64,000 nucleotides of DNA from the IMG/VR virus record IMGVR_UViG_3300032167_007519. The stretch is one strand, 5' to 3'. The translations under genes were made by a program, and so were the position numbers. The number at the start of each line of letters is the position of its first letter. Within the stretch, counting starts at the first letter, position 1. The DNA comes from a virus (Duplodnaviria > Heunggongvirae > Uroviricota > Caudoviricetes). The notes below the pieces were generated by a model. That model saw only the letters and a list, made by a program, of their open reading frames with translations, did no database searches and had not been told where the DNA came from. This document shows positions 57,971 through 58,053 of the stretch, in pieces.

Positions 57971-58053
57971 TGCAAGTACCGGGATTCGAACCCGGGATGA
58001 AGAATACTTCGCATGATTAAAAGTCATGTGCCCTACCACTAGGCGATACTTGC
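57971..58053 (-). tRNA. tRNA with anticodon TTT (Lys) and an unusual 16-nt structured variable arm (class-II-like)
   Basis: Acceptor GCAAGTA/TACTTGC, D-arm GCCTAGTGGTAGGGC, anticodon stem CATGA/TCATG with loop CTTTTAA, variable CGAAGTATTCTTCATC (GAAG..CTTC stem), T-arm CCGGG-TTCGAAT-CCCGG. Confidence 0.6.

Follow-up and report, generated by a model that had tools for sequence, protein, structure and literature searches.

Why bacteriophages carry transfer RNA (tRNA) genes has been debated for decades. In bacteria, a long variable arm is held to be limited to the tRNAs for Leu, Ser, Tyr and selenocysteine (Sec). Here we describe a gene for a tRNA-Lys with the anticodon UUU and a long variable arm, found in a stretch of 64,000 nucleotides (nt) of viral DNA (IMG/VR record IMGVR_UViG_3300032167_007519, Caudoviricetes), which is referred to below as the window. 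It is already known that phage tRNAs can act in counter-defence and that long-arm tRNAs with “wrong” anticodons occur in nematodes and among the allo-tRNAs. The group of long-arm phage tRNAs, of which the window gene is one ordinary member, is apparently undescribed. No account of class I isoacceptors (Lys, Thr, Asn) with extra arms in phages was found in the literature searched; most subscription journals lay outside its scope, and a prior description is possible.

The closest functional parallels are tRNAs that escape defence nucleases. AriB, the nuclease of the PARIS system, cuts tRNAs in the order Lys(UUU) > Thr(UGU) > Asn(GUU), within the anticodon stem between nucleotides 40 and 41, while its second subunit contacts U16/U17 of the D loop; phage T5 evades it by the substitutions U39A, A41C and U16C (PMC12409363). 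The T5 anti-PARIS tRNAs, like the one proposed here, are phage copies of nuclease-targeted isoacceptors in which the anticodon and decoding are kept (Burman et al. 2024, PMC11464382; Belukhina et al. 2025, PMC12409363). However, they escape by point substitutions in a normal tRNA with a 5-nt variable loop, whereas the window tRNA adds a hairpin of 11-12 nt instead, and its resistance is only proposed. P2-OLD cuts tRNA-Thr(UGU), tRNA-Lys(UUU) and tRNA-Asn(GUU) after nucleotides 28 and 40, and a phage tRNA-Thr(UGU) in which the anticodon stem is shortened and motifs are changed resists it (PMC12445682). In that case resistance is likewise partly architectural, and the cuts lie a few nucleotides from the point at which our extra arm leaves the molecule, but the change is of another kind and in another place, and no extra arm is reported there (PMC12445682). 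The bacterial Schlafen nuclease RorSlfn5 cuts tRNA-Lys(UUU) and tRNA-Met(CAU) (PMC13056530). The window tRNA is a phage copy of an isoacceptor targeted by AriB, OLD and RorSlfn5, and it lacks the T5-type substitutions at positions 39, 41 and 16.

In structural terms, bacterial tRNA-Tyr comes close, as the window tRNA shares its arm layout [1 nt, a stem of 3-4 base pairs (bp), a loop of ~4 nt, 3 nt], the G1-C72 pair, A73 and U35. The two differ in the anticodon (GUA in tRNA-Tyr), in the D arm (a 4-bp stem and 7-nt loop in the window tRNA, not 3 bp and ~11 nt) and in the Lys-like body of the window tRNA. Nematode nev-tRNAs (PMC3333845, PMC4300185) and non-canonical V-arm tRNAs of eukaryotes likewise combine a long arm with the anticodon of an amino acid that is normally served by class I. 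The nev-tRNAs, however, are eukaryotic, have Leu-type class II bodies, are charged with leucine and have no link to defence, whereas in the window tRNA the body is of the Lys type and the arm geometry is not that of Leu. Allo-tRNAs of bacteria and phages (Mukai et al. 2017, PMC5389517) are distinguished by 8/4 or 9/3 arms, a tRNA-Sec-like D arm, G73 or U73, and charging with Ser or Ala. An allo-tRNA or tRNA-Sec-like identity was ruled out for the window tRNA, which is of the 7/5 type with A73.

Fold and conservation of the extra arm

ARAGORN predicted a tRNA-Lys(ttt) at positions 57970-58054 of the minus strand, and the Rfam tRNA model RF00005 matched positions 57971-58053 (65.1 bits, E-value 1.6e-12, gathering score 29). 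Model positions 1-71 were all matched, the sole irregularity being a 12-nt insertion in the variable region. Read from the 5′ end, the molecule consists of the acceptor strand GCAAGUA, UC, the D arm (GCCU, AGUGGUA, GGGC), A, the anticodon arm (CAUGA, CUUUUAA, UCAUG), the variable region (C-GAAG-UAUU-CUUC-AUC), the T arm (CCGGG, UUCGAAU, CCCGG), the acceptor strand UACUUGC and a final A. The acceptor stem has 7 bp, the T stem 5 bp, and the D arm is of the class I type (4-bp stem, 7-nt loop). All features of a canonical elongator tRNA are present (cloverleaf, U33, a purine at position 37 and the T loop UUCGAAU). Instead of the class I variable loop of 4-5 nt expected of a tRNA-Lys, there are 16 nt with a 4-bp stem; the region exceeds 10 nt and forms a stem-loop, as in class II, but the D arm is not of the class II kind seen in tRNAs for Ser, Leu and Tyr (3-bp stem, loop of ~10-11 nt).

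The minimum free energy (MFE) fold is identical to the centroid fold and forms a five-arm cloverleaf of -28.5 kcal/mol (z = -3.6), and none of 200 shuffled sequences folded as well. Since the extra arm is present in both folds, an arm-less alternative was ruled out. The original prediction of a tRNA with a Lys anticodon and a long variable arm was thus borne out by ARAGORN, by the Rfam score and by the MFE fold.

A scan of the surroundings of the gene for promoters and terminators gave no signal above chance. On the tRNA strand, an inverted repeat (GATTCGGCTCTTG / CAAGAACCGATTC) that was read from the sequence and was not flagged by the terminator scan folds into a 13-bp hairpin that includes one mismatch and one G-U pair, ending 1 nt before the 5′ end of the tRNA. 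It may represent a leader or processing element.

Similarity searches with the window tRNA were empty, both by blastn against 50,697 GenBank phage records and in E. coli genomes, and a megablast search with the 52-62 kb segment of the window returned only a 38-bp match. For this reason homologues were sought with degenerate patterns composed of an anticodon arm, a gap forcing a long variable region, and a T arm; all counts of relatives and arrays given below are among the matches listed by these pattern scans. In IMG/VR the first pattern recovered 19 loci, each with a tRNA-Lys(ttt) of 83-94 nt, while JGI/ENA metagenomes yielded at least 120 matching stretches and a second viral scan, lacking the anticodon-stem anchor, at least 120 more. 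Altogether, at least 213 loci with a long-arm tRNA-Lys(UUU) were found, representing ~190 different sequences (193 unique); many are situated on viral contigs of 200-600 kb, and they originate from rumen, marine, soil and sludge samples. Among cellular genomes, the first pattern matched twice in 185,579 bacterial and archaeal species (one genome each, 596 Gb). Only one of these matches, on a contig with a tRNA array, was genuine; the other site contained no tRNA. The group is almost exclusively viral, and this sequence survey shows a widespread departure, in nature, from the rule confining long arms to Leu, Ser, Tyr and Sec. The two cellular matches also agree with the claim of the original prediction that a long arm is abnormal for a bacterial tRNA-Lys.

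The genuine cellular match (locus L020, PLXT01000115.1) is a 170-kb contig binned as a “Methanobacterium sp.” metagenome-assembled genome (MAG). At its positions 2373-6262 there is a dense array of 11 tRNAs, among them Lys(UUU) and Pro(UGG) tRNAs of 90 nt each and duplicates for Gln, Pro and Gly, and the contig looks like one of a phage or virus binned into an archaeal MAG.

Several cultured phages carry long-arm tRNAs, among them jumbo phages such as Serratia phage BF. In Serratia phage BF (KY630187 313219-313305) and Erwinia phages pEa_SNUABM_12/47/50 a long Lys(UUU) of 87 nt was found, and in Caulobacter phage CcrBL9 and its relatives a long Lys(CUU), also of 87 nt. Xanthomonas phage X1 has both long and short copies of Asn and of Lys(CUU), which form adjacent pairs of 86/76 nt for Asn(GUU) and 76/89 nt for Lys(CUU) (L262, OQ427096 139513-140323). 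A well-formed 89-nt tRNA-Asn(GUU) with an extra arm was noted in Cellulophaga phage phi4:1_13 (L259 1488-1576, KT962245 ~90397-90485). The long Asn gene of phi4:1 is labelled “tRNA-OTHER / tRNA-Pseudo” in GenBank, and because annotation pipelines label some such genes “pseudo” or “OTHER”, the tRNA repertoires of phages are under-counted.

For covariation analysis, 28 relatives with D arms of the class I type were aligned, in which three pairs of the extra arm are common to all. At these pairs 3, 11 and 15 sequences were changed on both sides, against 1, 4 and 2 mispairs, which places the extra arm on a par with the canonical helices, all of them intact. The whole structure in this alignment outperformed 500 of 500 shuffles and every slid control. 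In a wider set of 124 unique relatives, the variable region had a mean fold energy of -2.6 kcal/mol, compared with -0.5 kcal/mol for shuffles, and the stem sequences were highly diverse, with no conserved loop motif. What is shared is the layout, i.e. ~1 unpaired nt, a stem of 3-5 bp, a loop of ~4 nt, and then 3 or 4 unpaired nt, the last feature being found in 141 of 154 long Lys(UUU) tRNAs. The same 124 relatives encode CCA in about half of the cases, and 68 of them have D loops of 10-11 nt. Judged from these comparisons, the extra arm is under selection in the family. It also withstood the two checks proposed beforehand, as no arm-less fold is better and the homologues keep the arm with compensatory changes.

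The body to which the arm is attached points to tRNA-Lys. In every one of the 5426 complete E. coli genomes, the 87-nt copy of phage BF aligned end to end with tRNA-Lys genes and only with these; it differs from them by an 11-nt hairpin insertion after G45. In a joint alignment, a block of 11-12 nt between G45 and U47-C48 separates the phage tRNAs, that of the window included, from E. coli tRNA-Lys. When the variable region and the anticodon were masked, the nearest relatives of the window tRNA among the short tRNAs of the fetched phage arrays were Lys tRNAs, although the best core identity, 78%, is weak evidence, as the loci had been selected on Lys-like arms. Of the earlier suggestion of a chimeric tRNA, what stands is a class I tRNA-Lys body that acquired a hairpin; in any other sense it fell away. 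Other members of the group have class II-like or Tyr-like D arms (Tyr-like in loci L012, L019, L030 and L087), and because of these differing D-arm types the long-arm group probably arose more than once.

Charging and codon use

Lysine identity is set by the anticodon triplet and A73, and transplantation of UUU suffices for lysine acceptance in human tRNAs, whereas G73 is required for Ser and acts against the leucyl- and tyrosyl-tRNA synthetases (LeuRS and TyrRS), and C2-G71 is an anti-determinant against the seryl enzyme (SerRS) (PMC9976931). The window tRNA carries the full Lys set (U34, U35, U36 and A73) plus C2-G71, and A73 is found in 104 of 124 relatives, against 3 with G73. The number of unpaired nt 3′ of the extra stem offers a further guide: in the same phage arrays its mode is 1 for Ser, 2 for Leu and 3 for Tyr, and the window tRNA has 3. 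Together with A73 and C2-G71 this spacing departs from tRNA-Ser. It departs equally from tRNA-Leu, as do the class I D arm and the Levitt pair G15-C48, although A73 is present. Mischarging with Ser or Leu was ruled out on A73, C2-G71 and arm geometry. The features of tRNA-Tyr are present in part, namely A73, G1-C72, U35 and the arm geometry, while G34 and A36 are absent. TyrRS checks the anticodon, but SerRS and LeuRS ignore it. An arm that lacks the SerRS and LeuRS geometries and resembles the Tyr type would therefore fit selection against mischarging.

Codon use agrees with a role in lysine decoding. AAA accounts for 52.8 per 1000 codons of the window (5.3%), is the third most used codon, and outnumbers AAG by 780 to 356. 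In a small Codetta-style comparison of two conserved proteins with their cellular and viral homologues, the majority of residues in AAA columns were K, and the columns, only 19 in number, gave no signal for Tyr, Ser or Leu. Of the 54 arrays with 15 or more tRNAs, 15 have the long form as their sole Lys tRNA, whereas a normal Lys(UUU) accompanies it in 67 of 213 loci. Most likely, the window tRNA is charged with lysine and used in translation.

Could the arm instead recruit TyrRS, SerRS or LeuRS, so that AAA and AAG are read partly as Tyr, Ser or Leu? We consider this quite unlikely. In its favour are the Tyr-type arm (1 nt, a stem of 3-4 bp, 3 unpaired nt), the elements shared with bacterial tRNA-Tyr and the four relatives with Tyr-like D arms; a normal Lys(UUU), where it co-occurs, would leave the long copy free for a separate role, and V-arm tRNAs with “wrong” anticodons provide a precedent (PMC3333845, PMC5389517). 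Yet the window tRNA has a D arm of class I and is closest, among short tRNAs, to those for Lys, the Tyr identity bases G34 and A36 are missing, G73 is rare among relatives, C2-G71 with A73 disfavours SerRS, and the Ser-type and Leu-type spacings are avoided. Nor do the frequency of AAA, its alignment with K and the arrays in which the long form is the sole Lys tRNA fit a reassigned codon. The original prediction had offered a recoding tRNA or a mis-acylated suppressor-type tRNA. Both are unsupported, because the Lys identity elements are in place, the arm is of the Tyr type and not of the Ser or Leu type, and AAA is frequent and aligned mostly with K. Residual charging by TyrRS is possible.

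The use of lysine codons in the window is bimodal, as genes of higher GC content strongly favour AAG (AAA:AAG ratios of, e.g., 3:51 and 2:43; Table 1). These genes are probably host-derived and reflect the codon bias of the host; this being the more probable explanation, the preference for AAG as a sign that AAA is hazardous was set aside.

Nuclease targets and the role of the arm

Extra arms are not confined to tRNA-Lys(UUU). A census of unique tRNAs with class I anticodons, taken from arrays chosen for a long Lys(UUU), found them on 32% of Ile(UAU), 24% of Thr(UGU) (17/71), 22% of Asn(GUU), 16% of Cys, 15% of Trp, 14% of Lys(CUU) and 11% of Met tRNAs, but on none of 40 Thr(GGU), 50 Ala and 45 Arg(ACG) tRNAs. 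This pattern recurred in another viral set that had been fetched separately. Thr(UGU) and Asn(GUU), which are targets of AriB and P2-OLD, are thus the most frequent carriers after Ile(UAU). Compared with all other class I tRNAs the two gave an odds ratio (OR) of 3.8, with p = 2e-8, a value that is optimistic because related phages are not independent and were counted as if they were. tRNAs with U36, which read ANN codons, are also enriched in extra arms (80/600 vs 49/860, OR 2.5).

A converse anomaly was noticed in the same arrays, which contain 69 unique phage tRNA-Leu with a variable region of only 4-6 nt (72-79 nt in total). These keep a D arm of the class II type, A73 and often CCA. Among tRNA-Leu with the three commonest anticodons (UAA, UAG and CAA), ~40-60% are without the long arm in these arrays (examples in Table 1).

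The explanation that we favour, with a probability of roughly 0.4, is that the window gene encodes a phage tRNA for decoding Lys codons and that its added arm keeps tRNA-targeting nucleases from acting on it. The tRNA would be a functional decoder of AAA and AAG, made of a class I tRNA-Lys body with a short hairpin inserted after G45. UUU and A73 would keep it a substrate of the lysyl-tRNA synthetase (LysRS), the Tyr-type arm would keep SerRS and LeuRS away, and the phage, which is AT-rich and has AAA-heavy genes, would be supplied with AAA decoding. The arm leaves at position 45/46, three to five nt from the 40/41 cut, and adjoins the D stem. Projecting from the junction of the anticodon and D stems, it could sterically exclude nucleases that need a hold on the D region and on the upper part of the anticodon stem, most plausibly those of the ABC-ATPase/Toprim type such as PARIS AriB and OLD. 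The anticodon, acceptor end and elbow would remain open to LysRS, EF-Tu and the ribosome, and phage translation could go on after the host tRNA-Lys(UUU) is cut. On the distribution of the arms and the published target lists, a link to nucleases is the most plausible lead. The original prediction had also pointed to tRNA-Lys nucleases, with the tRNA as a decoy for enzymes of the PrrC/RloC class; that link holds as a lead, while an evader that still decodes appears a better fit than a decoy, and the Toprim enzymes AriB and P2-OLD a better fit than PrrC and RloC.

Several observations weigh against this explanation. U39, C40, A41 and U16 of the window tRNA are as in the sensitive E. coli tRNA, and the published AriB site sequence UAAUC/A (U36 A37 A38 plus U39 C40 A41) is unchanged; protection from an AriB-like enzyme would therefore rest on the arm alone. 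(Of the Lys(UUU) copies, 44 of 75 long and 10 of 28 short ones retain U39-C40, a comparison too weak and confounded to be used.) The tRNAs with extra arms also include some for Cys, Trp, Met, His and Glu, none of them a known target of AriB or OLD, and because of the Cys, Trp, His and Glu cases a single nuclease family is not the whole explanation. The enrichment statistics suffer from the same counting of related phages as independent, and the loci had been picked for a long Lys(UUU). A Firmicute of a Lachnospiraceae-like kind appears to be the host, and the tRNA-targeting systems documented here include none for such hosts. An extra arm may also be no obstacle to nucleases of the PrrC type, whose site of action is the anticodon stem-loop. 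Finally, class IIb synthetases approach the tRNA from the side of the variable loop, as in AspRS complexes, and the arm could hinder LysRS itself.

The other accounts of the arm share part of this evidence. It might serve the machinery of the phage or the folding of the tRNA, by marking phage tRNAs against host tRNAs that the phage degrades, by replacing a missing 7-methylguanosine at position 46 (m7G46), or by steadying AU-rich tRNAs whose codons are rich in A and U. The insertion takes the place of position 46, which in E. coli tRNA-Lys is m7G; arms are enriched on U36 tRNAs and extend to tRNAs outside the known nuclease targets, and because the loop sequence is not conserved the role of the arm looks structural. 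We nevertheless regard this account as unlikely, since no phage tRNA nuclease or arm-binding protein was identified among the window open reading frames (ORFs) scanned, and stabilisation leaves the contrast between Thr(UGU) and Thr(GGU) unexplained. As a decoy or sponge, the tRNA would occupy a tRNA-Lys nuclease or some other tRNA-binding factor of defence or regulation (e.g. a T-box leader or a toxin), the arm making it a dead-end ligand. The UAAUCA and U16 by which AriB recognises E. coli tRNA-Lys are indeed retained exactly, and a normal Lys(UUU) copy often co-occurs. A stoichiometric binder would, however, be a weak answer to a catalytic nuclease, the features needed for translation are conserved (7/5 arms, T loop UUCGAAU, A73, CCA in about half of the relatives), and the long form is the sole Lys tRNA in many otherwise complete arrays, which makes a decoy very unlikely. 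That the insertion is a neutral accident, tolerated in a redundant or decaying phage tRNA gene, is hardly credible. The “tRNA-Pseudo” label on the phi4:1 homologue would suit it, and odd or low-quality tRNAs do occur in phage arrays, but covariation largely refutes it through the compensatory changes in the stem, and the fixed spacing 3′ of the stem, the intact canonical helices and the ~190 different sequences from very different phages and habitats all speak against it.

Beyond nuclease blocking by the window tRNA, a more general and rather doubtful proposal may be put forward tentatively, namely that phages reshape tRNA class for immune evasion. They would place a Tyr-type arm onto Lys(UUU), Thr(UGU), Asn(GUU), Ile(UAU) and some other class I tRNAs and strip the arm from many tRNA-Leu, so that nucleases reading structure are evaded while synthetases reading the anticodon and discriminator still charge the products.

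The long-arm group alters the shape of the tRNA rather than its sequence, unlike the point-mutated copies that survive host tRNA-cutting immunity. If reshaping for evasion were true, it would add a second, shape-based axis to the phage-host conflict over tRNAs, beside escape by point mutation, and if the long-arm tRNAs function as decoders, the exception to the class rule would extend to working tRNAs. An arm that blocks nucleases would reveal the tRNA surfaces that those enzymes read, offer a simple route to nuclease-resistant tRNAs, and provide a metagenomic marker of phages under pressure from tRNA-targeting defence. The question can be tested directly in cultured carriers (Serratia BF, Erwinia pEa_SNUABM, Xanthomonas X1, Caulobacter CcrBL9 and Cellulophaga phi4:1).

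Genome context of the tRNA gene

The window has a GC content of ~33%, and nearly all of its ORFs are located on the minus strand. Several of its proteins match phage protein families (PHROGs), and the same sequence is present in several metagenomes of JGI, where its contigs reach 164.5 kb. Among named relatives, those closest to its CapA-like and DUF2828 proteins come from MAGs of Lachnospiraceae and Clostridia. From this evidence we infer that the window derives from a large phage of a Firmicute host, Lachnospiraceae-like in character. Among the ~40 window ORFs scanned against PHROGs and Pfam, none encodes a LysRS, another synthetase or a tRNA-repair enzyme.

The gene lies in a tRNA array at 49.5-58 kb (Ser, Gly, Met, Leu, Met, Gln, Lys), a stretch that also holds a transfer-messenger RNA (tmRNA), a GOLLD-like RNA and an HNH endonuclease gene. 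Its order of long Lys and then Gln is common to related viral contigs (L003, L018 and L060). ARAGORN detected no Lys tRNA of normal length within the 64 kb. Features are listed in Table 1.

Table 1. Positions of the tRNA-Lys gene, its parts and other features (window coordinates unless a locus is named)
Feature	Position	Strand	Basis
tRNA gene, anticodon UUU (Lys), 83 nt, without encoded CCA	57971-58053	-	ARAGORN, Rfam, MFE fold
Discriminator base A73	57971	-	Sequence
16-nt variable region C-GAAG-UAUU-CUUC-AUC (1 unpaired nt, 4-bp stem, 4-nt loop, 3 unpaired nt)	57996-58011	-	Sequence, fold, same layout in relatives
Extra-arm hairpin GAAG-UAUU-CUUC, ~11-nt insertion after G45 relative to normal tRNA-Lys	57999-58010	-	Covariation; alignment with E. 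coli tRNA-Lys
3′ strand of the anticodon stem, U39 C40 A41 U42 G43	58012-58016	-	Sequence
Anticodon U34 U35 U36 within loop CUUUUAA (58017-58023)	58019-58021	-	Sequence; ARAGORN anticodon position 34
Inverted repeat 5′ of the tRNA, 13-bp hairpin	58055-58087	-	Sequence
tRNA-Gln(UUG), neighbour of tRNA-Lys	57781-57853	-	ARAGORN
HNH endonuclease ORF	57258-57755	-	Pfam HNH_3
GOLLD-like RNA	55448-55898	-	Rfam RF02032
tmRNA	53282-53667	-	ARAGORN; Rfam, 132.8 bits
Ro60/TROVE-like protein ORF	51022-52497	-	DUF2828 + DUF7788 + vWA
tRNA-like element	50830-50956	-	Rfam tRNA model, 47 bits
AAG-favouring genes (SPFH/flotillin-like, Ro-like, HTH, Ig-domain)	31200-32786, 51022-52497, 45490-46407, 46555-49461	- (all)	Codon counts
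Short-arm tRNA-Leu, examples among loci L001-L258	L011 3037-3111 and 4249-4322; L030 2470-2628; L057 1282-1360		

The tmRNA situated within the array encodes the tag peptide ANAYRPVAQAA. The GOLLD-like RNA matches RF02032 over its full length with 76 bits (E-value 1.6e-18), which is under the gathering score of 150, and it may be a divergent GOLLD relative placed among the tRNAs. Located between tRNA genes of the array, the HNH ORF resembles the homing endonucleases of other phage tRNA clusters. Directly downstream of the Ro60/TROVE-like gene there is an element that is matched by the Rfam tRNA model with an insertion of ~60 nt at the expected anticodon loop and is not called by ARAGORN. It could be a Y RNA of the YrlA type (a tRNA-like module with a Ro-binding stem) or an intron-containing tRNA.

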